DNA of 23,725 bases from Planctomycetota bacterium (GCA_026386955.1 JAPLMQ010000190.1:1-23725), one strand, 5' to 3'; positions 1,866 to 23,725 are shown, numbered from the stretch's first letter. The notes: generated from the sequence alone by a model not told the origin. Numbers and translations are program-made.

Positions 1866-4148
1866 GTGTGGGCCATGGCCGACTCTTCATCTCGTGAGCT
1901 TGATCGCGCGACCTCCGCGCCTTCCCCCATGCCTTCGCCCAAGCTCCACCATCGCCTCCTCGCCCGGCTCTCCATCCGCTTCACCATCCCCGCGCTGCTC
2001 GCCACGCCCACCATCCTCGCCTGCATCCTCCTGATCTACCTCAGCGTCAGCCGGGCCCGCACCGCGGTCGACCGGCTCGTGGTCGACACCTTCGACGCCA
2101 CGCACGACCGCGTCGCCGAGCGCATCAACGAGATCGTCGGCATGCCCCAGCGGCTCAACGAGCTCAACCTCCGCCTGTTGCGCCTGGGCAAGCTCGATGC
2201 GGCCGACCTCGCCTCCTGGCGGCCTCTGCTCCACCAACAAGCCCGCGTCTTCGACTTCATCAGCTGCATGAGCTGGGACGGCGCCGACGGCCGGCACGCC
2301 TGGATCACCCGCTACCCCGGCGGGCCCGACCTCTACTTCGCGGTCAACAACCAGGCCGGCTCGCGGCAGGTCGTCGAACGCCGCTGCCTGCCCGACGGCT
2401 CGCTCGAGGAGGGCGCCCCGCGCACCTACGACATCGACCCGCGCGAGTTCGCCCCGTTTAAGGCCGGCGCCAAGGCCGACTCCTTCGCGTGGTCCGAGCC
2501 GTTTGACTGGGTCAGCGAGGACGGCTCGATCCTCACCCGCGCGCTCGCCAACGTCGTGCCTGTGCGCGACGAAGCGGGCAAGCTCGAGGGCGTGCTCACC
2601 GCCCAGTTCACCTTGCACGACATCAGCACGTTCCTCAGCGGCCAGGGCCTCAGCCCGGGCGGGCGGATCTTCATCCTCGACACGCAGGGGCATCTCCTGG
2701 CCGACTCCCGGCTCTACCCCGCGCTCGACCTCAACCGCAAGCCGGTGCTCGCCACCGAGGCGAAGGACGGCGTGATCGTCGCCGCGACGGCCGCCGCCAA
2801 GCTCGACCCCGCCAACCCCACCTCCTTCCTCGTCCGCCAGCAGAAGATCTTCTCCTTCGAGGGCAAGCCGTGGATCCTCGTCGCCACGCCCTTCCACCAC
2901 CCCTCGGGCCTGCGCTGGATCACCGTCACCGCAGCCCCGGAGAGCGATTTCCTGGGCGACGTGAACAAGACCCGCCGCGACGGCGCGCTGATCGCTCTGG
3001 CGATCGCACTGGGCACGATCCTCTTCGGCATCCTTCTGGCCTTCTTCGTCCTGCGCCCGATGATCGCGCTGACCAACTACCTCCGCCTCCTGGGCGAGGG
3101 CGAGCTCGACGCCCGCATCGACCTGCCCTACGCCCGCGAGTTCCGCCAGATCGCCGACGCGCTCAACCGCACCGCCGCGAGCTTGAAGGAGCACCTCAAG
3201 CTCACGCACGACGTCAACATCGCCGACGAGATCCAGCGGAGCCTGCTGCCCGCCTCGACGCCCGACTTCCCCGGGCTGGAGCTGGCCGCGTTCGGGCGGT
3301 TCTGCGACAAGACCGGCGGCGACTACTACGACTTCTTCCTCCGCCGCGAGGGCGACGCGCATGAGATGGTGATCGCCATCGGCGACGTGGTCGGGCACGG
3401 GCTCCCCTCGGCGATGATGATGGCGACCACGCGCGGGCTGCTCCGCTCTCGCTCGGAGGTGACCAACTCCGTCGCCGACATGCTCATCCACGCCAACCGC
3501 CACCTGCTCGGCGAGGGCGAGATGACCACCGGGCGCTTCATGACGCTGCTGCTGCTCCACATCGACGCAGGGGCGCGCACGCTCCGCTTCGCCTCCGCCG
3601 GGCACGACAGCCCCATCGCCTACGACGCCGCAACGAAGACCTTCCCCGAGATCGACGGCGGCGACCTCCCGCTGGGCATCCTCGCGAACACGAAATACCT
3701 CGACCACCCGATGCCCGAGCTCTCGCCCGGCTCGGTCCTGCTCCTGGGGACCGACGGGCTCTGGGAGGCCCGCAGCCCCGCGGGGCAGATGCTCGGGAAG
3801 GAGCGGCTGCGCGAGGTGATCGCCGCGAACGCCTCGCGCCCCGCGAAGGAGATCGTCGCCGCGCTGTGGGAGCTCTCGGAGCGCCACCGCGGGGGGATCC
3901 CGCTCAAGGACGACCTGACGATCGTGCTGGCGAAGTTGAGTTTATTGGGAACGAAATCGGTGGATTTGCCGTGCCACACCGCAGCCGAAGGCTGCTGTGG
4001 GAGAAGACCTGTCCCGGTTTCTTCCTTGGTAGAATCCTTCCCGATTAGGCCGCCATGGACATACTTTGGGATATCGATATGGATCATCCTGCATTGCAAA
4101 GGCTCGCCGGCTTCTGGTCCAAATTGGCCCAATGGGAAGCCGGCATGA
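1866..4148 (+). CDS. Membrane-anchored sensor PP2C-type (SpoIIE/RsbU-like) Ser/Thr phosphatase. Domain order: N-terminal TM, an extracytoplasmic sensor region, a second TM, a HAMP-like linker, then the PP2C domain.
   Basis: PP2C/SpoIIE motifs are present (GDYYDF...AIGDVVGHGLPSAMMMA...LLGTDGLWEA...DDLTIVLAKL). There is a TM helix at the N-terminus and a second one (LIALAIALGTILFGILLAFFVL) before a HAMP-like segment. The ORF formally runs to 4148, but the last ~70 codons lie in a low-GC insert and read through a repeat hairpin. The native end is probably near 3945. Confidence 0.8.
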   Translation: MWAMADSSSRELDRATSAPSPMPSPKLHHRLLARLSIRFTIPALLATPTILACILLIYLSVSRARTAVDRLVVDTFDATHDRVAERINEIVGMPQRLNELNLRLLRLGKLDAADLASWRPLLHQQARVFDFISCMSWDGADGRHAWITRYPGGPDLYFAVNNQAGSRQVVERRCLPDGSLEEGAPRTYDIDPREFAPFKAGAKADSFAWSEPFDWVSEDGSILTRALANVVPVRDEAGKLEGVLTAQFTLHDISTFLSGQGLSPGGRIFILDTQGHLLADSRLYPALDLNRKPVLATEAKDGVIVAATAAAKLDPANPTSFLVRQQKIFSFEGKPWILVATPFHHPSGLRWITVTAAPESDFLGDVNKTRRDGALIALAIALGTILFGILLAFFVLRPMIALTNYLRLLGEGELDARIDLPYAREFRQIADALNRTAASLKEHLKLTHDVNIADEIQRSLLPASTPDFPGLELAAFGRFCDKTGGDYYDFFLRREGDAHEMVIAIGDVVGHGLPSAMMMATTRGLLRSRSEVTNSVADMLIHANRHLLGEGEMTTGRFMTLLLLHIDAGARTLRFASAGHDSPIAYDAATKTFPEIDGGDLPLGILANTKYLDHPMPELSPGSVLLLGTDGLWEARSPAGQMLGKERLREVIAANASRPAKEIVAALWELSERHRGGIPLKDDLTIVLAKLSLLGTKSVDLPCHTAAEGCCGRRPVPVSSLVESFPIRPPWTYFGISIWIILHCKGSPASGPNWPNGKPA
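3966..3997. repeat. Solo copy of the hairpin repeat GTGCCACACCGCAGCC-GAA-GGCTGCTGTGGG. It has a 12-bp stem and belongs to the same family as the terminal inverted repeats of the 164-bp elements at 20079 and 21880.
   Basis: The match to the left ends of the elements at 20079-20108 and 21880-21909 is near-identical. The palindrome was verified by hand. Confidence 0.6.
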
Positions 4149-4516
4149 TTGAATTGTCAAAGCGCTTGGAAGACGGTCTGGTCGATGAGGCCGCTTACCG
4201 AAACCGTGTCGTTGCGGGAAAAAATGACCTGATGGCAATATACGCCACATTCTGCGACGCCGGGGAAAAAGCGTCAAGATTCAAAGACCAAGGGCTTAGC
4301 TGGCTTGGCGAAATAGAGCATGCGCCCGGCGGTGAAGTTGTAGAATCCTGCAAACTCGTTCGCCATAAGATGGTAATTGAAACGCGGCAGACGATAGCTC
4401 TTATGCATAGGCGAAGATACGAGGTGATTGAGCGTGATGGAGTGTGGAAACTGCGAGATGTCTTGTACTACTCGACCTTGGGCAATCCTGAAAAACGGCG
4501 CAAAGAGATGCTGTGA
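4055..4516 (+). CDS. Hypothetical small protein of 153 aa, possibly with an NTF2-like/SnoaL-like fold, encoded entirely within the low-GC island.
   Basis: ATG-start ORF with codon usage unlike its neighbours. The C-terminal ...RYEVIERDGVWKLRDVLY resembles the terminal beta-strands of NTF2-like domains. I recognise no family, and no SD is evident. Confidence 0.45.
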   Translation: MDILWDIDMDHPALQRLAGFWSKLAQWEAGMIELSKRLEDGLVDEAAYRNRVVAGKNDLMAIYATFCDAGEKASRFKDQGLSWLGEIEHAPGGEVVESCKLVRHKMVIETRQTIALMHRRRYEVIERDGVWKLRDVLYYSTLGNPEKRRKEML

Positions 4517-4554
4517 AGAAGAAAAAATGGTGGCGGAATCAAGTTTGAGCCCGC

Positions 4555-7189: not shown

Positions 7190-7975
7190 ATGGCATTCAC
7201 GCTCGACGACTCGATGATCAACCACTATTGGAGCCAAGGCTACCTGATCTTCCGCGGGATCGTTCCGCCGACGCTGCTGCGCGACTTGCGAGCCGAGTCC
7301 GACAAGGCCCGCGAACTGGTCCGGGCCCGCTCGGGCCCACAGGTGCTGCGCACGCCGCTGGTCAAGACCCTCGACGGGCAGATCAGCATGAAGCCGTTCC
7401 AGGACTACCTCGACCTGCCCGAACTGGTCGGGGCGCTGGAACGCCTGTTCGGGCCGGGGTCGAGGCCCGGGAGCTTCGACCTCCTGCAGGTGCTGCTCGA
7501 GCCCAAGAACCGCCCGGTGATGGGCGGATGGCACCGCGACGGCGTGGTGGGCCTGCCGATGAGCGAGCAGCACAAGCCCGAGCAACTCGCCAAGCGGGCC
7601 GAGGTGTGGCACCGCCCGCGTTCGGGGAACCAGGTGAACTGCGCGATCTACTCCGACTCGTGCCTCTGGTACGTCCCGGGGAGCCACCTGCGGATGCGCG
7701 ACCTCGCGGGCGAGCGGCAGAGCTGGTGCTTCATGACGGAGAAGTATCCGTACGCCGATTCGAAGCTGAGCGACGTGGAACTGGAACGGACGTTCATCGA
7801 CATCTGCCGGGCGTTCCCGGGGGCGATGCAGGCGCACCTCGCGCCGGGGGACTACATGGTCTACCGCAGCCAGGCGTGGCACACGGGGGTCTACGCGCCG
7901 ACGCAGCCCCGGGCGACGATCCACGACATCCCGACGTACGACTGGTCGGAGGGGCGCGGGCTGGGGGCGCCGTGA
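7190..7975 (+). CDS. Phytanoyl-CoA dioxygenase (PhyH)-family Fe(II)/2-oxoglutarate oxygenase.
   Basis: N-terminal HYWSQGYLIFRGIV with a WHRD (HxD) motif and a distal His (WHTGVY). A GAAGGAGAAG RBS lies 8 nt upstream of the ATG. It is likely an operon with 6293-7129. Confidence 0.65.
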   Translation: MAFTLDDSMINHYWSQGYLIFRGIVPPTLLRDLRAESDKARELVRARSGPQVLRTPLVKTLDGQISMKPFQDYLDLPELVGALERLFGPGSRPGSFDLLQVLLEPKNRPVMGGWHRDGVVGLPMSEQHKPEQLAKRAEVWHRPRSGNQVNCAIYSDSCLWYVPGSHLRMRDLAGERQSWCFMTEKYPYADSKLSDVELERTFIDICRAFPGAMQAHLAPGDYMVYRSQAWHTGVYAPTQPRATIHDIPTYDWSEGRGLGAP

Positions 7976-8002
7976 GGGCGGCGGAAAGCTGGGTGACACG
8001 CG

Positions 8003-8031
8003 CTGATCCGAGCCGGACAGGCTCTGATCAG
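8003..8031. terminator. Imperfect 11-bp-stem hairpin (CTGATCcGAGCC-GGACA-GGCTCtGATCAG) between the convergent genes. It is a candidate bidirectional terminator.
   Basis: The palindrome was read directly from sequence. No U-tract is present. Confidence 0.3.
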
Positions 8032-8057
8032 CCGTGCCGTTGCCCGCCGCCCGCCAT

Positions 8058-11000
8058 TCACTTCTTCAACCGATCCACCTCCGCTTGCGCCGCGGCATGG
8101 AGCGCGGAGTCTGCCGCCGTGTCCTCCAGTGCGGTGGTGAAGAGCCGCCGGGCGTCGGCGGTCTGGCCGAGCTTGAGCAGGCGGAAACCCAGCGCGTAGG
8201 CCGCGGGGGCGCGGAGGTCGGGAGGAAGGCCTCTCGCCGCGCCGTCCCAGCCCAGGCTGTTGGTCAGCCCCTTCCACGTCATGAGGAACTGCATCGGGTT
8301 CGCGGCCGAGAAGCGGTTGTCCAGCCAGGCGCCCAGGAGCGTGTGGGAGGCGGCGGCGAGCTGGTCGTCGCGCTGGGGCGTGACGTCGGCGGGGTCGATG
8401 CTGAGCAGGAAGAGCCCGTCGAGCAGCGTGGCGAGCGGTCGGCGGTTGGCGTCGATGTATGAGCAGTCGCCCATGACGACCTGGCGCGCGACCTCGTGCC
8501 CGCGCGGGGACTGGAACGCGCGCCGGATCACCGTCGCGGCGACTCCGTTGAACGCCGAGGCGCCAAGAGCCAGAGGCGTGACTCCCTTCCCATACGCCTC
8601 CGCCTGATGCAGCAGGTGTCTCGCATGGTCGTCGGTTAGGTCATCGCTCAACACGCCGGCGATGCCGACGTTGAGCAGGCCCAAGGCGGCGCTCTGGAGA
8701 TGCAGTTCGTCGTCCCCCCCCTCGGGCTTCGCGAATTGCGAGGCGGCGATCGCGTAGCTCGCCCGCCAAGCCGCGCGGGCACCGGCAGGATCTCCCCTCT
8801 TCTCGAACACGAACCCGCGGATGAGGCCCGCCTCGATGCGGTCCCGCATGGACGTGCCGCTGCGGGCCTCCACGGCGTCGAGGTCGCGCAGGGCGTCGTC
8901 CAGCCGGCCCATCGCCGCCCAATCGCGGGCGCGCTCGACGAGCAGGGACTCGAGGCCGGGGCGATAGGTCTCGCTGGGCTCGCGGCTGGTTTGGTTCTTG
9001 GGCGGTTTTTCGAGAAGGTGCTGGTTCACGCGGGCCAGCGCCTGCTCGGGCTTGCCCGCGACGCGCAGCACACGGCCAAGGTGGCGGTTGGCGTCGAGGA
9101 CGAGCGCGTTGTAGGCGGGGCCTTCGCAGAGCTTGAAGACCTGCTCAGCCATGTCCACGGCCTCGGTGGGCCGGTTCGCCAACTGGTAGGCCCGCAACAG
9201 CCACTGCCGGGTCATGATCCGGCGCATCAGGTTGTCGTCGAAGAGGTCCTCGATCTGCAAAAGGTTCTCGAACGCCGGGATCTTCACGCCCGCCCCGCCC
9301 CCGAAGAGCAGCCCAACGCCCATGCCCGTCGAGGCCAGGCTGTCGAAGATCTGCGTGTGGACGTATTGAGGGACGATGCGGGAGAAGTCTTGGCGGGAGA
9401 AACGGGTGCGGAAGGCGGTGACGACGGCCTCGGTCTCGACCATGCGGCGCTCGGGCTGGTAGATGAGCCAGAGCTGGCAGCCCGCGAGGAGGGACCAACG
9501 GTCGCTCGAGTCGATGAACACGGCCTCAAGGCGCGGGACCGCCTCCGAGGCGCGGTTGAGGCGCAGGAGGCAAATTCCCTGCTTGTATCCCGCGGCCCGC
9601 GCCGCCGCCGGATCCTTGGAGCCCACCGCCTGCGCCGCATAGAGCGGAAGCGCCTCCTCGTATTGTCCGCGAGAGAGGAGGTCGTCGGCCCGCTCAAGCG
9701 GCGAAGGGGCCCGCGCGAGCGTCTGCCGCTGGGCCGTCAGCCTCAGCATCCTGCTCCGCGGGAGCGAGATGTCGAAGCACCCGCGCGGCGGAAGCGGGAG
9801 CACATCGGTGATCTCGATCGGCTCCAGGTCATTGACCTGGAGCTCCAGCCGGTCGTCCTGCCGCGTGGCGCGCAGGCGCAGGCCGTCGGAGGGCAGGTCG
9901 GCGAGGGCGACGACGCGGCTGCGCATGAGGCCCTGCGGACCGTCGACGTAGAGGCGGGCGGAGCCGCCCGCGGTTCGGGCTCCGGCGAAGGTCGTGGCCG
10001 GGGCGCCCTGCGGCTGTACAACCTCAAGAATGAATCGGTAGCAGTGCACGGCGCCGTCAAGGACCCGGCCGGTGGGCCGATTGAGGTAAAGCACCAGGAT
10101 CGTGTCCTCGTCCCAGCCGGGTCCCAGTCGGGCCTCGATCTGTACGGAACCGTTGCAGGGACCACCGTCCGCCACCGGAAGAGGCTTCGACGAGACAGGC
10201 TCGGCAACGGGCGAGGTCGCGGTCGGCACCTCTCCGACGGGCGGGCCTCCAAGGGCGGCCTCCAACCCGGCGAAGGGCGGCTTCAAGTCAAAGATCGGCT
10301 GCCAGGCGCGGGAGCGCTCCGCCAAGGCCTGCCTCAGTGCGGGGACCTGCGCCTTGTCCCGCGTCTCGAGGCCCGCGAGCAGCGCCTCGACGCGCATCAT
10401 GTCGGCGGGCGTGAGCTGCGGCACGCGCAGGGCCTCGGCGATCGCGCCCGCCAGCGCGGCGGCGACCTGCTGCCGCCCGGCCTTGCCCAGCGCGGGGTCG
10501 ATCGCGGCGATGTCGTCGACCTGCGCGTCGAGCGCCTTCAAGTCCGCGGCCGACCATGTGGTGGTCTTGAGGTCCTCCTGCAGCGTCCGTGTGGCCTCGC
10601 GCTTCCGCTCCGAGCGCAGGGCCTCGGCGCGGAAGTGGCTCGCGGCCGCGAGCAGCGAAACGACGGTGAGCAGGATCGCGCCGGTGAGGAGGATCGCGCG
10701 GCGGTGCTTGCGGCTCTTGCGGGCCAGGATGTAGCGCAGCGTCGGCGCACGGGCGGCGAGCGGGTTGCCCGCGAGGTAATTCTCCAGGTCTTGGGCCATC
10801 TCGGCGGCGGAGGGGTAGCGCTGCGCGGGGTCGTGGGCGAGGGCCTTGCCCAGCAGCGCGTCGAGCTCGTGGTCGATCGCGGGGCAGACGCGGCGGGCGC
10901 GGGGCGCCTCCTCCTTGGCGATCCGGCTGAGGATCTCCAGGTGCGAGCCGGTCATCGCGTGCGGGAGGCAGCCGGCGAGGAGTTCGAAGAGGATCACGCC

Positions 11001-18323: not shown

Positions 18324-19106
18324 TCAAAGCCCCCACGCCGCCCGCTGTTCGAGTCGCGGGCCTGCGAGCCAGTGCATGATGTTCGACATCATGTCGCCGC
18401 GCATCGAGGGGTGGTGGCCGACTTCGTTCCAGTTCAGGAGGCCGACCATGGCGACCCGCCCCTTGCCGAATTGGCCGGCGGTGACGACGGGCATGCGTCC
18501 GGGGCGGAGCGGGGTGTTGAGCGGGAGGATGGGCATGACCAGGTCGTCCTTGGCGACGAGGACCTGTGCCTTGGCGGGGTCGGGCCAGAAGACCATGCCG
18601 CAGCCGCTGACGGGCATGGCGTCGCCGGGCGCGAGGCCGGGGATGATCGGGTGGGCGCGGAGGACGGAGGCGCCCATCGGCCGGCCGCAGACGCCGGGGG
18701 TGTGGTACTCGGAGATCGCGTCGGTGAGCAGGAGGCGACAGACGCGCGGGTCGCGCCGGCCGGGGGACTGCGCGCCGACGACGCCCTTGTGGAACAGGCC
18801 CACGCCGGAGGCGACGGCCTGGGCGACGGCGTCGAGCACGGAGTTGGGGAGGCAGGCGATGGTGCCGCAGTAGATCACGTCGAGCGTCTGCAGGGCGCGG
18901 GCGTCGGTGGCGTCGATCATGCCGGCGAGGAGGTTGTGCTTTCGGACGGCGGCCTCGACGGGGCCGAGCTCGCCGCTGCCGGGCTCGACGACGCTCAGGA
19001 GGCGGAAGGCGGGGTCGAGCATCAGGGGCGTGCCGATGAGCTGGTGCTCGGCGGGGAGGTAGAGGCCCTGGAAATTGGGCGTGGTGAGCGTGAGGTAGCT
19101 GATCAT
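18324..19106 (-). CDS. ThuA-like / class-I glutamine-amidotransferase-like domain protein. The start is uncertain because the frame is open all the way up into the sigma-factor region-4 coding sequence.
   Basis: The C-terminal GQFGKGRVAMVGLLNWNEVGHHP resembles the ThuA motif (...GKGRVFY..LGH). Start placed at the first ATG (MISYLTL...). No stop codon separates it from the upstream sigma region 4. Confidence 0.4.
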   Translation of the reverse strand: MISYLTLTTPNFQGLYLPAEHQLIGTPLMLDPAFRLLSVVEPGSGELGPVEAAVRKHNLLAGMIDATDARALQTLDVIYCGTIACLPNSVLDAVAQAVASGVGLFHKGVVGAQSPGRRDPRVCRLLLTDAISEYHTPGVCGRPMGASVLRAHPIIPGLAPGDAMPVSGCGMVFWPDPAKAQVLVAKDDLVMPILPLNTPLRPGRMPVVTAGQFGKGRVAMVGLLNWNEVGHHPSMRGDMMSNIMHWLAGPRLEQRAAWGL

Positions 19107-19306
19107 CACGCCGATGCGGATGGGGCGGCGGCCCGCGTGGAGGAGGTGGCCGTTACTGCCACGGGCGGCCTGCTGTTCCCAGAGGATGCCCGATTCGGCG
19201 GCTGCTTCGGCTGCGACTGCGGCGCCCAGGCCCGGACGGCCGAGCCCGCCGGGGCGGTCGAGGTCGCGCGCGGCGGCGGCGGCGTCCTCGGGACGCTCGA
19301 AGCCCA

Positions 19307-19830
19307 GGTCGGCGAGCCGGTCGCGCAGGCGGGCGAGGGCTTGGCGCACGCGCCGGCAGGCGGTGGGCGTGGAGACGCCCATGTCGGCGGCGATCTCCTG
19401 CAGGGGCGTCTGGCTGAGGAACCGCGCGGCGATCAGGTTGCGCGTCGGCGCGTCGAGCCCCGCCAGGGCCTCGGCGAGGCAGGCGTCGATCGCCTCCCAC
19501 GGCACGCCCGGCCCGCGCCGCGGAGGACTGCGTCGCCCAGGCCCGGCTGTGCTTGCGCTGCGCGAGCGTCCGTCGGGCGGAGTCGATCGCGGCGTGGGTC
19601 GCGGTGGATTTCAGCCAGGAGGTCAGCCCCGTGTCGATCGCGGGGGCCTCGCGGGCGAGCTTGACGAAGGTCTCCTGCACCACGTCGTCGAGGCTGCCGG
19701 GGTCGACCATGTGGCGCCGGCAGGCGGCGGTGACCATCGCTCGGTAGCGCGAGACCAGCTCGGCGAAAGCGCCGGCGTCGTCTTGCCGGTGGAACCGTTC
19801 GAGGAGCGTGAACTCGTGGGATAGCGTCAA
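19307..19830 (-). pseudogene. ECF (sigma-70 family) sigma factor whose region 2 and region 4 are in different reading frames. It is either a frameshifted pseudogene or a sequencing error.
   Basis: Region 2 (FAELVSRYRAMVTAACRRHMVDPGSLDDVVQETFVKL...TSWLKSTATHAAIDSARR) is in the frame that starts at the 19830 TTG. Region 4 (LAGLDAPTRNLIAARFLSQTPLQEIAADMGVSTPTACRRVRQALARLRDRL) is in the -1/+1 frame. The shift lies near 19510-19545. No stop follows region 4. Confidence 0.5.
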
Positions 19831-20078
19831 GGCATGCCTCGCGGGGACTCACGCGTCGGGGGCGAAACGAACCGGCGCCGGCCGGGGGTTTGGCCATTAT
19901 CGCGGCGCGCAACGCGCGTACCAATACCCCTGGCCGGAGAACCGTCCCCGGAATGGACGCTTGAGGAGCGGAAGGTTTTCAGGAATTCCGCGCCGGGGGG
20001 CGAAATTTTCGTCGATGGTCGCCGCGGCGATCGTCGAGGGCACGTCGGCTTTGTCGCGACCCTTGAAGGAATCCGGAC

Positions 20079-20242
20079 GTGCCACACCGCAGCCGCAGGC
20101 TGCTGTGTGCCGGTCAACCGGAGGCGCGGGGACTGCGCGACGTTGATGTCCACGCGCGTCGATGGGGGAGGAAAGAGGTCTCCCGCGAATCCTGGGCTTT
20201 TTGTTGACTCGCACATAGCAGCCTTCGGCTGCGATGTGGCAC
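20079..20242. repeat. 164-bp element, copy 1. It has an about 85-bp core flanked by about 40-bp terminal inverted repeats, each of which is a 12-bp-stem hairpin (GTGCCACAYCGCAGCC-GNA-GGCTGCTRTGTGCSRGTCAAC). It resembles a REP/BIME or MITE.
   Basis: The left end (20079-20118) and the reverse complement of the right end (20203-20242) align over about 40 bp. The whole element is about 85% identical to the copy at 21880-22043. It lies immediately 3' of the His-rich gene at 20267-20827. Confidence 0.65.
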
Positions 20243-20266
20243 GCCTCTTGTGATGTTTCGCGCGGC

Positions 20267-20827
20267 TCAGGCGACGGTGTCGACCGCGGAGCCGGGCGGG
20301 ATGGTCTCGGCGAGGCTGGCGTCGCTGCCGCCCTTGACCTGCTTGAGGGCGGCGAGGAAGTCGGCGCGGAACTGCGAGTCGTCGACGCCGAAGGACTTGA
20401 GCAGCGACTGGAAAGCCTCGCGCGAGGATGAGGCGTTCGCGCCTTGGGCGGAGGGATCGCCCGCCCCCGGAGGCGGCGTGGAGCCGTCTGCGGGGGGCTG
20501 GCCGCCGGGGCCGTCCTTGAGGACCTTGGCGATGGCGTCCTGGATCACCTTGTTAGGGTCGGCCGAGGGATCGTTGGAGGAGTCCTGCAGCGCGCTGGTG
20601 ACGGCCGCCTCGATCTTCTTGAAGAGCCCGCCGCCGTGGTGGCCGTGATGCCCGTGGGCGCGGCCGGCGCCTTGGGCCTCACTGGACGCATCACTGTCGC
20701 CGTCGCTGTCCGCGCCTTGGACGCCGCCGGTCTGCGGAGTCTGCGGGGCGGAGGCCTGCTGGCCCGCGACCTGTCGGAGGAACTGGTAGAGGCCCGAATC
20801 GCCGCTGGTTGAACTGATGCTGGACAT
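20267..20827 (-). CDS. Histidine-rich low-complexity protein, paralog 1, 186 aa. It has no signal peptide and ends in ...AVDTVA.
   Basis: ATG with AAGGAG 8 nt upstream. Contains HGHHGHHGGGLFKKIEAAVTSAL, DPNKVIQDAI and FQSLLKSFGVDDSQFRADFLAALKQV modules, all shared with 22149-23204. The listed 671-aa ORF on this span is a read-through artefact. Confidence 0.6.
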   Translation of the reverse strand: MSSISSTSGDSGLYQFLRQVAGQQASAPQTPQTGGVQGADSDGDSDASSEAQGAGRAHGHHGHHGGGLFKKIEAAVTSALQDSSNDPSADPNKVIQDAIAKVLKDGPGGQPPADGSTPPPGAGDPSAQGANASSSREAFQSLLKSFGVDDSQFRADFLAALKQVKGGSDASLAETIPPGSAVDTVA

Positions 20828-20983
20828 GGGTGCAACTCCTTGGGGAGAAAAGAGGACATCTCTGTCCCCGGAGCACCGAGTCCACTGAACCACCGTGGAA
20901 GGGGAGATCGGCGATTTATTCCCACGGACTTGGGTAATTCGTTTTGGACTCGAACAGGCGCGAAATTTATCGGACGCGGTGGT
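20828..20983. promoter_or_regulatory. AT-richer divergent intergenic region between His-rich paralog 1 on the minus strand and the + strand gene at 20984. It probably carries both promoters.
   Basis: Local GC drops here (ATAAAT and AAATTTAT stretches). The 5' leader next to the minus-strand ATG is homologous to the leader of paralog 2. Confidence 0.3.
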
Positions 20984-21835
20984 ATGGTTTCCCGCGCGTT
21001 CCGGCATTTCGGCCGCACTTCCCGGATCAATCCCATGTACGCCAAATCGACCACACCCGGGCAACGCGTCTTCACCTGTGCCCACAGCTTCCATGAATTC
21101 GTGCCGGGGATCCTCGACGAGATCGCTGCGGCTGCGGGCATCGCGGGGCACGCGACCGTCGGGCTCTCCTCGATCGGCGGGTCGCGCGTCGTCCAGCATT
21201 GGGACGTGCCCGACGATCAAAACGAGGCGAAGCGGTTGCTGCGCGCGGGCGGCGTCGATGTGCTGACCCTCTCGCCGATCTGGCTGCCCGACGCGGGTAT
21301 GGAGAAGTTCGCCGCCCTCGCGGCGGAGCACAACCCCAACGTGCGCGTGACGCTCCAGGAATATTGGCTGCCCAACGACGAGTACGAGCCGGCCTACCCG
21401 CTGAACACCGGCAAGCAGGTCGACCACGACGCCGCGACGGGGGCGGGGCTGCGGCGGCATCACGAGGCCTATTTCCGCGACTTCGACGGTGTCGCCCGCG
21501 GCATCAACAAGGCGATCGGGCGCGAGGTGGTCTTCATCGCGCCGGTGGGGCAGGCCGTGATCCCGCTGCGCGAGATGATCATCCGCGGCGAGGCGCCGGG
21601 GCTGAAGACGCAGGCGGAGCTGTTCACCGATTCGTGGGGGCACGTGACGCAGCCGATCCAGGTCCTCGCGGCCTACTGCCACTTCGCGGTGATCTACCGC
21701 CGCAGCCCGACGGGGTTGCCGGCGCCGTCGATGCTGGCGAACGCGGGCCGGCCGGGGTGGGACCGGCTCAACCGCGTGCTGCAGGACCTGGCGTGGGAGG
21801 CGGCGAAGGGGCACGCGCTGAGCGGGGTGGGGTGA
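20984..21835 (+). CDS. Hypothetical protein of about 280 aa with a possible alpha/beta or TIM-barrel-like strand pattern. It is transcribed divergently from His-rich paralog 1 and lies between the two paralogs.
   Basis: The ORF has consistent GC3-rich coding composition. There is an alternative start at 21035 (MYAKST...). I recognise no family. Confidence 0.45.
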   Translation: MVSRAFRHFGRTSRINPMYAKSTTPGQRVFTCAHSFHEFVPGILDEIAAAAGIAGHATVGLSSIGGSRVVQHWDVPDDQNEAKRLLRAGGVDVLTLSPIWLPDAGMEKFAALAAEHNPNVRVTLQEYWLPNDEYEPAYPLNTGKQVDHDAATGAGLRRHHEAYFRDFDGVARGINKAIGREVVFIAPVGQAVIPLREMIIRGEAPGLKTQAELFTDSWGHVTQPIQVLAAYCHFAVIYRRSPTGLPAPSMLANAGRPGWDRLNRVLQDLAWEAAKGHALSGVG

Positions 21836-21879
21836 GCGAGGGCGCAAGCTCTGTTGCGATCCGCGAAAGATCTTGGATC

Positions 21880-22043
21880 GTGCCACACCGCAGCCGGAGG
21901 CTGCTGTGTGCCGGTCAACTGGGAACGCGGAGATTGCGCGACGTCGAGTTCCACGCGCGCCGACGCGTGAGAGGAAATGTCTCTGGCGAATCCTGAGTCT
22001 CTTGTTGACTCGCACATAGCAGCCTTCGGCTGCGATGTGGCAC
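21880..22043. repeat. 164-bp inverted-repeat element, copy 2, of the same family as 20079-20242. It lies 3' of His-rich paralog 2.
   Basis: The terminal hairpins are identical in position and nearly identical in sequence to copy 1. Its 3' flank differs by an extra ~95-bp insert at about 22055-22125. Confidence 0.65.
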
Positions 22044-22148
22044 GGGTCATGTGATGCCTCGCGTGGATTTGGCTTCGCCTGATGAGAAAGCGAACCTCCG
22101 TCGCTGGCGCGTCCGGCTAACAAATCAAATGCGGCGACGCCGCGCGGC

Positions 22149-23204
22149 TCAGGCGACGGTGTCGACCGACGCGGTGGTCGGGACGGGCTGCGGGGTGGGC
22201 GTGGGGGTTGCGGTCGGCGCAGGTGTGGAACTTGCGGCGGGCGTCGCGGAACTGTTGCCGAAGACTTCGCGGAGGGCGGCAAGGAAGTCGGCGCGGAACT
22301 GCTGGGCGTCGACGCCGACGGATTTCAGCAGGCGCTGGAACTCGTGCGGGCGGGAGTGCGACGAGGCGTGCGACGATTCGTCGGAATGGTGGTGATGCCC
22401 GTGATGGCGATGGCGCCGGCGGCCGACAGGGGCGGCGTCGTCATCATCATCGGTGGCGGCGGGGGCGTCGGTGGGGATCGACGGGGTGGTCGTCGTCGTG
22501 GGCGTGGTGGTCTGCGTAGGCGTCGGGGGCTGCGCGGACGACTCGGTCGGGGTCGTGTTGGTGGTGGTCGTCGTAGTCGGGGTGGTCGTCGTCGCGTCGC
22601 CCGTGGTGGCGGGCGTCGTGCCGGCGGGAGTCGTCGCCGTGGGGGTCGTGCCGCCGGTGGCCGCGGGCGTGCTTGAGGTGTTCGTGGGGGTCGGCGTCGT
22701 GGTGGCGGCGGGGGTCGTGGAAGTCGGAGTCGTGGTCGTGGGAGTCGTCGGCGTGGTAGGCGTCGTCGGCGCGGGGAGGTTGAAGCGCTGGCGCAGCACG
22801 GCGACGATCGCGTCCTGGATCACCTTGTTGGGGTCGGAGATGGGATTGGCGTTGGAGTCGGAGGAGGCGTCGTTGCCGGGGTTTTGTTTCGCGGCCTTGA
22901 GGGCCTCCGTCACGGCCGACGCGATCTGCTTGAAGAGCCCGCCGAAGCCGTCGCCGCCGTCATGGTGATGGTGGTGGCCGTGGGCGCGATGGCTGCCGAA
23001 GTGGTGGCCGCGTTCGAAGCGGTCGCCGTCGGGGGAGGTGGTCGTCGGGGTGTTCGTGTTGGTGTTGGTGTTGGTGTTGGTGTTGGTCGGGGTCGTGCCG
23101 TCGGTCGGCGTGGGCGACTGCTGCGTGCCCTGCTGCTGAACGGTCACGCGGGTGTAGGAGAAGCTGAAGCTCTGATAGGTGTACGAGGTGTTGACGGTGG
23201 ACAT
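22149..23204 (-). CDS. Histidine-rich low-complexity protein, paralog 2, 351 aa. It has an added Thr/Pro-rich mucin-like segment and a (TN)6 repeat, and ends in ...ASVDTVA.
   Basis: ATG with AAGGAAG about 9 nt upstream. Contains HGHHHHHDGGDGFGGLFKQIASAVTEAL, DPNKVIQDAI, RRRHRHHGHHHH and FQRLLKSVGVDAQQFRADFLAALREV, which are homologous to paralog 1. The Thr/Pro linker is about 100 aa. Confidence 0.6.
   Translation of the reverse strand: MSTVNTSYTYQSFSFSYTRVTVQQQGTQQSPTPTDGTTPTNTNTNTNTNTNTPTTTSPDGDRFERGHHFGSHRAHGHHHHHDGGDGFGGLFKQIASAVTEALKAAKQNPGNDASSDSNANPISDPNKVIQDAIVAVLRQRFNLPAPTTPTTPTTPTTTTPTSTTPAATTTPTPTNTSSTPAATGGTTPTATTPAGTTPATTGDATTTTPTTTTTTNTTPTESSAQPPTPTQTTTPTTTTTPSIPTDAPAATDDDDDAAPVGRRRHRHHGHHHHSDESSHASSHSRPHEFQRLLKSVGVDAQQFRADFLAALREVFGNSSATPAASSTPAPTATPTPTPQPVPTTASVDTVA
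23051..23086. repeat. Hexanucleotide microsatellite TGTTCG(TGTTGG)5 inside paralog 2. It encodes TNTNTNTNTNTNT on the minus strand.
   Basis: Tandem units were counted by hand. Unit-number changes would preserve the reading frame. Confidence 0.7.
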
Positions 23205-23475
23205 TGCAACAGCTTCCTTTGGAGGGACTTAAGTTCTCCTGCAAAGGGTGCCATCGGACGATTGCCCCGCGGTCTCGCCAGAATCCGGAGGTCTCTCCGC
23301 AAGGTTTTTTTATAGGGCGGGGGAAAGGGCGATGGAGGGGCTGGGAGGAGGGGTGGGGGTTCGAATCGATGGACTTGGCTTTGGTGATGCGGCGGTTCGT
23401 GCGGACTCAAATGGATTCCCACGCGGCGGCGACAGTTCCATCTGAATCAGAGCCGGCGACTGTGTCGCCGAAGAT

Positions 23476-23635
23476 CGGGCGAGGCGGTACTCCGCCCGCG
23501 CGACGTGCCGGCGTCGATGACGCCACCAAGAGGGGGGAGACGTTCGGCAACAAGCCTTTTGGCGCAGGCCTCGCGTGAAGCCAAGCAGTTCATGGCGGCC
23601 GGCGATTCGCGCGGGCGGGGTACCGCCTCGCCCGG
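23476..23635. repeat. Pair of 25-bp quasi-palindromic motifs (CGGGCGAGGCGGTACYCCGCCCGCG at 23476-23500, and its inverse at 23609-23635) separated by 108 bp. Each is centred on GGTACC.
   Basis: The two arms match 24/25 as reverse complements and each arm is also self-complementary. They lie 270-430 bp upstream of paralog 2 or upstream of an unseen + gene. They could be operator sites or REP-like elements. Confidence 0.5.
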
Positions 23636-23725
23636 TCTTCGGACACACAGTGTCCGTCTCGGATCAGGCTGCGCCTGATGGGAGAAAGCGAACGTTTCAA
23701 CAAAGCACTTGGCCCCGGACCACGG

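Follow-up and report, generated by a model that had tools for sequence, protein, structure and literature searches.

The 23.7-kb contig of a Planctomycetota metagenome-assembled genome analysed here, which has a GC content of roughly 70% and is called the window in what follows, carries towards its end two paralogous minus-strand genes encoding proteins of 186 and 351 amino acids (aa), designated paralog 1 and paralog 2. The original prediction, made from the DNA alone, had described the products of this pair as histidine-rich proteins with a possible role in metal binding or storage. The paralogy is sound and the reading as His-rich metal proteins is mostly not supported; the most informative feature of the family to which both genes belong is a sigma-28-like promoter motif, which constitutes a testable regulatory hypothesis. 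The Phycisphaerae, the only group in which this family is seen, are abundant soil and water bacteria with a cell biology that is still in large part uncharacterised, and uncharacterised lineage-specific families are common. A family that is conserved across the class, with hundreds of members of constant architecture, is expected to have a real function.

Two diverged paralogs and their duplicated flank

The two genes, which are open reading frame (ORF) calls, and the elements inside them are the following.

20267-20827, minus strand: paralog 1, 186 aa, a typical full-length member of the family
20627-20656, minus strand: sole His block of paralog 1, HGHHGHHGGG, aa 58-67, directly preceding the helix LFKKIEAAVTSAL in the alignment
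22149-23204, minus strand: paralog 2, 351 aa, a divergent and expanded member
23049-23087, minus strand: (TN)6 repeat of paralog 2, with a 6-nucleotide (nt) unit, 6.5 copies and 93% matches
22962-22982, minus strand: first His block of paralog 2, HGHHHHH, aa 75-81, counterpart of the family cluster
22419-22787, minus strand: Thr/Pro-rich linker of paralog 2, about aa 140-262, made of degenerate 9-21-nt tandem units
22386-22418, minus strand: second His block of paralog 2, RRHRHHGHHHH, aa 263-273, absent from other family members

The ORF calls agree with the prediction in position, strand and length. Paralog 1 was identified by cluster look-up as NCBI MCX5660479.1, a 'hypothetical protein' with the locus tag NTW19_12260, and is matched over its full length by the hidden Markov model (HMM) of the family with an E-value of about 1e-59. 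The same model matches paralog 2 with an E-value of about 1e-20 through modules 1-2 and 3-4, which this protein retains together with the MST.. N-terminus. Two blocks of BLASTP similarity between the proteins, LFK(K/Q)I..AVT.AL...DPNKVIQDAI (E = 3e-10) and FQ.LLKS.GVD..QFRADFLAAL (72% identity, E = 1e-10), join the HMM match in confirming the shared helical modules. The common VDTVA C-terminal end was found in both proteins, and the predicted absence of a signal peptide agrees with the lack of a hydrophobic N-terminal segment in either of them.

At the DNA level, the shared coding modules are arranged in the same order and are 75-88% identical, and the GC content at the three codon positions is 0.69/0.55/0.89 in paralog 1 and 0.55/0.65/0.90 in paralog 2. 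This degree of divergence, together with a third-position GC content (GC3) of about 0.90 in both frames, excludes the assembly duplication that had been named as a possible refutation; both genes are therefore real and truly diverged paralogs and no assembly artefact. The nearest relative of paralog 2 is paralog 1, in the C-terminal module as well as in the DNA.

The distribution of the His blocks differs from the one first described. A poly-His block was said to precede every module, which is wrong: paralog 1 has one block, paralog 2 has two with a total of 19 His, and module 2 has none in either protein. The gain of a Thr/Pro-rich linker and a TN repeat by paralog 2 was confirmed by the analysis of tandem units. 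Its extra length derives from the (TN)6 repeat and from the tandem units of the linker, which supports an enlargement of the gene by low-complexity expansion.

The homology of the two genes extends into their 3' flanks over 219 nt with 82% identity, and each flank contains a large hairpin resembling repetitive extragenic palindromic (REP) elements and the REP doublets forming hairpins (REPINs).

20048-20262, minus strand: duplicated 3' block of paralog 1, with a REPIN-like hairpin whose arms lie at 20078-20118 and 20203-20243
21848-22063, minus strand: 3' block of paralog 2, the other copy of the duplicated block, whose hairpin has arms at 21879-21919 and 22004-22044; the block lies immediately next to the 3' end of the convergent ORF 20840-21835
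22064-22140, minus strand: 78-nt insertion, from sequence comparison, which separates the hairpin block of paralog 2 from the stop codon
22131-22143, minus strand: small terminator-like hairpin, GCGGCGTCGCCGC + ATTTGATTTG, which starts inside the 78-nt insertion and ends 3 nt past its upper end
3969-3999, plus strand: solo REP-like arm, 93-97% identical, 16 kb away, at the edge of a low-GC island

A stretch of 28 nt (22141-22168 versus 20259-20286), which takes in the final six codons with the stop codon and extends 7 nt further, shows 100% identity in the two copies. Because the shared blocks are colinear and this identity runs across the stop codon, the gene and its 3' flank were duplicated together in a lineage-specific event, in agreement with the segmental duplication of a gene-plus-flank unit proposed in the original prediction. 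The occurrence of a fully identical stretch amid coding DNA of 75-88% identity suggests gene conversion or a constraint at the junction of gene and repeat. What had been said of homologous 3' flanks with a hairpin is thus correct for the homology itself, and has to be amended for the insertion that interrupts the flank of paralog 2 and for the arm, which is not private to the duplication.

In each hairpin (166 nt), two inverted arms of 41 nt with 88% complementarity are separated by 84 nt, and every arm forms a small palindrome of its own, CACAT-C-GCAGCC-GAA-GGCTGC-T-ATGTG. The RNA folds of the two hairpins have z-scores of -6.7 and -7.3. The position of the hairpin right after the gene and in the same orientation in both copies, with a homology that reaches 20-30 nt past the arms, would be that of a transcription terminator private to the gene, which the duplication took along, with no dispersed repeat involved. 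We consider this explanation improbable: the hairpin is not followed by a U-tract, the arm recurs 16 kb off at 3969-3999, an arm of 100% identity ends a separate contig from Lac Pavin after an unrelated gene, and the arms are 96-100% identical between the copies whereas divergence is seen in the 84-nt spacer and in the coding sequence. Furthermore, the other loci of the family are without such a hairpin, so that a conserved 3' hairpin was rejected as a family feature. We read the element as a REP/REPIN-like dispersed palindrome that lay downstream of the ancestral gene and was copied along with it, and that does not belong to the equipment of the gene family itself. The Lac Pavin arm, identical to 20203-20243, occupies positions 2730-2775 at the very end of a 2.8-kb contig binned as Verrucomicrobia (L015) and follows an ORF unrelated to the family, which has the look of a discoidin/F5-8 type C domain as judged from its translated sequence alone. 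This contig, which breaks at the repeat, may have been mis-binned and come from the same planctomycete; otherwise, the element would be one that different organisms have in common.

What has become of paralog 2 since the duplication? The genomic context of the family was surveyed in about 50 distinct loci, and a further 48 metagenome loci were retrieved. Two copies were found in the window only and every other locus has one, so that the paired arrangement is unique to the window. In a collection of 15 billion proteins, paralog 1 is present whereas the exact 351-aa sequence of paralog 2, from the same contig, is absent; paralog 2 was probably not called by the annotators, or was called with a different start. 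A search with paralog 2 alone gave no matches, the output being swamped by low-complexity candidates, and no long-form homolog was found. The ratio of nonsynonymous to synonymous substitution rates (dN/dS) between the paralogs is about 0.67, over 68 aligned codons of the shared modules. This ratio, the slippage inserts, the lack of long-form homologs and the absence from the protein collection suggest relaxed constraint or neofunctionalisation, and paralog 2 would accordingly be described as a relaxed or neofunctionalising copy inflated by repeat slippage. A more radical explanation is that there is no functional two-gene system, paralog 2 being a decaying or fast-diverging redundant copy that acquired its extra His block and mucin-like linker incidentally, through slippage. 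The observations that speak for it are the uniqueness of the pairing, the dN/dS, the expansion of short tandem units in the inserts, the probable lack of a gene call and the isolation of the long form. On the other hand, the frame of 351 codons is intact with a GC3 of 0.90, a promoter-like motif, a Shine-Dalgarno sequence, both helix modules and the VDTVA end are retained, and the gene has a terminator-like hairpin of its own. We regard such a decay as a serious possibility which nevertheless falls somewhat short of being probable.

A Phycisphaerae family with a variable histidine cluster

A search with paralog 1 returned 63 homologs; every one carries the label 'hypothetical', Pfam domains are lacking throughout, and the only taxa named for them are Planctomycetota, Phycisphaerales and Tepidisphaeraceae. 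A search with a broader alignment gave 118 homologs and added Humisphaera, and an exhaustive profile search yielded at least 379 clusters (50% identity, E <= 1e-3), 142 of them below 1e-30, the named sources being metagenome-assembled genomes of Phycisphaerae only. Nearly all of these 379 clusters are about 170-215 aa long and are matched from residue 1 to the last. No relatives of the family were found on viral contigs. The proteins are acidic, range from about 150 to 215 aa, and have median values of 190 aa, an isoelectric point (pI) of 4.7, no Cys and no Trp, with about 64% of S/T/A/G/P/Q; a check of sequence composition revealed no hydrophobic segment, signal peptide or membrane segment in the members.

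The alignments define a constant architecture. The N-terminal tip MS(S/A)IS (M-S-x-I-S), followed by L.QF.Q, is conserved across the family. The helix of module 1, LFxxIxxAVTSALQ, is followed by a turn and the helix DPN(K/Q)VIxDAIAxV, and a variable acidic linker then separates this hairpin module from the second, a helix-turn-helix AFxQxLQSxG(V/I)xPxQFxxDFxAAV (in a broader form AFxxxLxSxG(V/I)xPxQFxxDFxAA), after which comes the conserved C-terminal tail FPPGSxVDTTA. The invariant columns of the broad alignment are I4, V76, L80, N92, F139, L143, G147, F153, D156, A160, G179 and D183. AlphaFold2, run with 31 sequences, proposes five helices, with a per-residue confidence (pLDDT) of about 80 on the four core helices, which coincide exactly with those of the alignment, and below 50 elsewhere; most of the protein is predicted to be disordered.

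Scans of both paralogs and 31 members against Pfam, NCBIfam, PADLOC and PHROGs returned nothing meaningful, the best library scores being SurA_N_3 (E = 1e-3, in 4 members) and DpdH (13.5 bits). A profile search of the PDB gave no significant match, and several of the matches were His-tagged constructs, for example of thioredoxin. These results bear out the earlier statement that the proteins could not be placed in any known family. Judging from the searches, the paralogs are members of an undescribed family known only from Phycisphaerae, to which no known family or fold can be assigned. A subfamily of 150-160 aa, with the pattern MLAIPSIS...QKTKQAAAKA...TLDVTG, has no His cluster (L038, L042, L046, L054, L056-L058, L067).

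In every locus surveyed, the family gene stands alone and its neighbours are unrelated from one locus to another; no conserved gene neighbourhood was found in the about 50 loci. Cpn10 lies within several kb in three loci, two of which are syntenic relatives. Each family gene thus forms a stand-alone, monocistronic transcription unit.

The label 'histidine-rich' fails for the family. A typical member has a single cluster with 3-6 His and about one further His outside it, the median being 6 His per 190 aa, and the cluster is missing in 42 of 220 members (about 19%; at most 1 His in any 10-aa window). There is no invariant His column in the broad alignment, and the conserved helical core is without His. 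No hyp, ure, nik, znu-type or other metal gene recurs as a neighbour in the about 50 loci. Since the cluster is missing in about 19% of the members, no His is invariant and the neighbours are not metal genes, a role in metal storage or as a metallochaperone is unlikely to be the core function of the family, and the binding or storage of Ni, Zn or Co suggested by the original prediction is not supported as such.

The opposite explanation, in which the binding of Ni, Zn, Co or Cu by the His cluster, perhaps with an Asp-rich D.DGD linker, is the very function of the protein, draws on the 3-6 His per 10-aa window of most members, on H59 and H61, which are invariant or nearly so in the closer homologs, on the acidic DxDGD(G)-like segment found in the linkers of many members, and on the two His blocks of paralog 2. 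It is quite unlikely in view of the His-less members, including the 150-160-aa subfamily, which keep all the helical modules, both termini and the promoter motif; furthermore, the His content of about 3% is far under that of Hpn-type proteins, and the D.DGD stretch is not present in paralog 1. The His cluster would very probably bind Ni or Zn in vitro. From its distribution in the alignments it is a clade-variable accessory, which might make the protein sensitive to metal or pH in some clades. Conspicuous as they are, the His runs are not what the family conserves, and attention shifts away from metal storage.

The upstream motif and the sigma-28 reading

A family-specific motif, newly found in this work, lies upstream of the genes. 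The hexamer CCGAT[AG] occurs at positions -130 to -30 of 28 of 36 distinct family genes versus 5 of 96 other genes of the same loci (Fisher p = 1.4e-16; background 0.08 per 100 nt), usually 74-99 nt before the ATG. An expectation-maximisation search gave a two-block motif, ggT.At-N17-gGCCGAT(G/A), whose -10-like block is the information-rich part, and four loci outside the derivation of the motif carry ACCGATAA, ACCGATAT or TCCGATAA at the same distance. A scan of all the retrieved loci with the promoter model gave no convincing targets outside the family. The corresponding elements of the window are as follows.

20902-20935, minus strand: promoter-like motif of paralog 1, -10-like GCCGATCT, with CCGATC at 20906-20911, -84 from the ATG
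20836-20841, minus strand: Shine-Dalgarno sequence AAGGAG of paralog 1, an instance of the strong family-wide one
23248-23281, minus strand: promoter-like motif of paralog 2, -10-like TCCGATGG, with CCGATG at 23252-23257, -53 from the ATG
23215-23219, minus strand: Shine-Dalgarno sequence AAGGA of paralog 2, from the sequence

A strong Shine-Dalgarno sequence, GAAAGGA(T/G)T, precedes 24 of 36 family genes versus 18 of 97 controls (p = 4e-7). The homology that had been claimed for the 5' leaders of the two paralogs is weak: it holds for the Shine-Dalgarno sequence and the start codon region, which are shared family-wide, and there is little beyond them. A leader of CsrA type, in which the loop of a hairpin ahead of the Shine-Dalgarno sequence contains GGA, was considered and rejected, 9 of 39 leaders having one versus 6.5 ± 2.3 in shuffles, which is not significant. 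In the His-less subfamily, L038, L042, L057, L058 and L067 have two CCGATA motifs each; the second one of L067 lies just 14 nt before the ATG with no Shine-Dalgarno sequence, a hint that a second promoter may give rise to a leaderless transcript.

Could this motif be the promoter of an alternative sigma factor? The consensus of sigma-28/FliA is GCCGATAA for the -10 element and TCTAAAG for the -35 element (PMC12784957). The -10 part of the family motif matches GCCGATAA, and at least 6 of its 8 positions are matched in 37 of 39 promoters. The motif therefore points to a defined alternative sigma factor, probably FliA. Planctomycetes encode fliA (PMC11958385), and the Tepidisphaeraceae have one flagellum, motile cells having been observed only in young liquid cultures (PMC13514998). 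If this is true, the family would be a first candidate member of an alternative-sigma regulon in Phycisphaerae.

The model that we put forward starts from this motif, which would serve as promoter for an alternative sigma factor like sigma-28/FliA. Read in this way, it would place the expression of the family with the late flagellar or motile-phase regulon of its flagellated hosts. The protein would act through protein-protein contacts of its short conserved helices and of its termini, either as a regulator folding upon binding or in flagellar export, as a substrate of the apparatus or an accessory to it. The general form of this model, a sigma-28-type, motile-phase protein acting through protein contacts, is offered tentatively, as possible and somewhat on the doubtful side. 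Its more specific form is unlikely: the family would be an unrecognised, Phycisphaerae-specific gene of the late-flagellar sigma-28 regulon, encoding a non-homologous analogue of FlgM or a new export substrate or accessory, in which the His cluster would serve as a metal or pH switch in most clades.

Several observations weigh against the sigma-28 reading. The -35-like block is weak (0.3-0.6 bits), reads T.AT and not TAAA, and lies 17 nt from GCCGAT and not at the canonical 15; the motif of paralog 1, GCCGATCT, has a C at the R position. No similarity to flagellar Pfam families was found in the family members, and a scan for flagellin, rod/hook and FliA signatures gave none in the loci scanned, among which L066 was not included. 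The AlphaFold2 model is poor overall, with a pTM of 0.38. The motif could also be an operator, or belong to another class of sigma factor. The only flagellar gene seen near any family member is the fliM of L066, 1.2 kb away; at 7795-10609 of this locus, taken from a contig of 1.68 Mb, the family gene and a divergent gene for a STAS-domain protein are 240 nt apart, and the STAS gene is followed by fliM and by a gene for an Rce1-like protease.

The misfit of the -35 part and of the spacing with canonical sigma-28 promoters leaves room for an explanation with no link to motility, in which the family would be a disordered stress or stationary-phase protein, of the hydrophilin or chaperone-like kind, controlled by another alternative sigma factor (ECF, for extracytoplasmic function, or another of group 3) or by a CCGATA-binding transcription factor. 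The disorder-prone composition (10.6% Gly, pI 4.7) is in keeping with it, most homologs come from metagenome assemblies of JGI, ENA and Logan, and ECF sigma genes lie nearby in the window, L003 and L010. These ECF neighbours are however not conserved, CCGAT is the hallmark core of sigma-28-type -10 elements, the members have no LEA (late embryogenesis abundant) or hydrophilin Pfam match, and their mean hydropathy is well short of that of hydrophilins. The spacing of the family motif is also even longer than is usual for ECF promoters. We hold the stress protein to be rather unlikely, and retain the sigma-28-type reading as our working model.

Other features of the window and comparison with known systems

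The remaining features of the window are listed below.

18324-19830, minus strand: ECF sigma gene, split, with region 2 in frame with 19830, and region 4 and a C-terminal extension of about 330 aa in another frame
19896-19924: sigma-70-like promoter TTGGTA-17-GATAAT
20840-21835, plus strand: ORF between the paralogs, with a true start probably near 20984
4055-4516: gene for an NTF2-fold immunity protein in the low-GC island (Pfam Imm-NTF2, E = 9e-10)
23446-23664: second, unrelated large hairpin, 240-460 nt upstream of paralog 2, with 75-nt arms of 81% complementarity and a 69-nt loop

The ECF sigma gene that had been noted directly downstream of the pair is present in the window; it is however split over two frames and is not a conserved neighbour of the family elsewhere. 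The shift of frame lies in a GC-rich run around 19,500-19,510, and could be genuine or stem from the assembly. Scans against Pfam, NCBIfam, PADLOC and PHROGs gave no match for the ORF between the paralogs, and this ORF shows no synteny with the gene upstream of the closest family homolog. Scans of the window for Rfam families and tRNAs were empty.

The solo REP-like arm lies exactly at the start of the low-GC island (3969-4520, GC of about 0.59 versus 0.70), and the ORF of a Cache-HAMP-SpoIIE phosphatase (1866-4148) crosses this arm into the island. Foreign DNA may have been inserted at the REP site, replacing the original 3' end. A segment of 23 nt at 22065-22087 recurs with 83% identity at 23661-23683, beside the second hairpin (GGATTTGGCTTCGCCTGATGAGA versus GGATCAGGCTGCGCCTGATGGGA), and the local intergenic DNA seems to be rich in families of palindromic repeats.

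The hairpin downstream of the paralogs resembles REP and REPIN elements in its two inverted imperfect palindromes of about 35-41 nt forming a long hairpin, in its extragenic location at the 3' ends of genes and in the presence of further copies elsewhere, six arms having been seen in total, five in the 23.7 kb and one on another contig. Its 84-nt spacer is longer than in classical REPINs.

As for the proteins, a short consecutive His/Gly run is what they have in common with Hpn, Hpn-like proteins and the His tails of HypB, UreE, SlyD and CooJ. The family differs from these by its single cluster of 3-6 His over about 190 aa, by the lack of this cluster in part of its members, by its helical core without His and by a context free of hydrogenase, urease or nickel genes. 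The LEA proteins and hydrophilins are characterised by more than 6% Gly and a mean hydrophilicity above 1; the Gly content of the family lies in that range, but its grand average of hydropathy (GRAVY) is only -0.41.

With regard to the promoters of sigma-28/FliA (TAAA-N15-GCCGATAA), the likeness resides in the -10 block gGCCGAT(A/G), and the difference in the weak T.AT -35-like block and the N17 spacing. Homology of the family with FlgM, the anti-sigma-28 factor (PF04316), was rejected: none of 31 members matches PF04316 at E <= 5, two canonical FlgMs scoring 2e-9 and 4e-18 in the same library, the hhalign probability is 0.1%, and no FlgM chain appears in the PDB profile search at E <= 10. The family proteins are about twice as long as FlgM, have no sequence or profile similarity to it and are never encoded beside flgN or flgA. 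As an analogy in function, however, FlgM is the nearest one: like it, the family proteins are small, without signal peptide and, by prediction, largely disordered with short conserved helices; a sigma-28-like -10 element precedes the gene, and the N-terminus is conserved as in flagellar export substrates.

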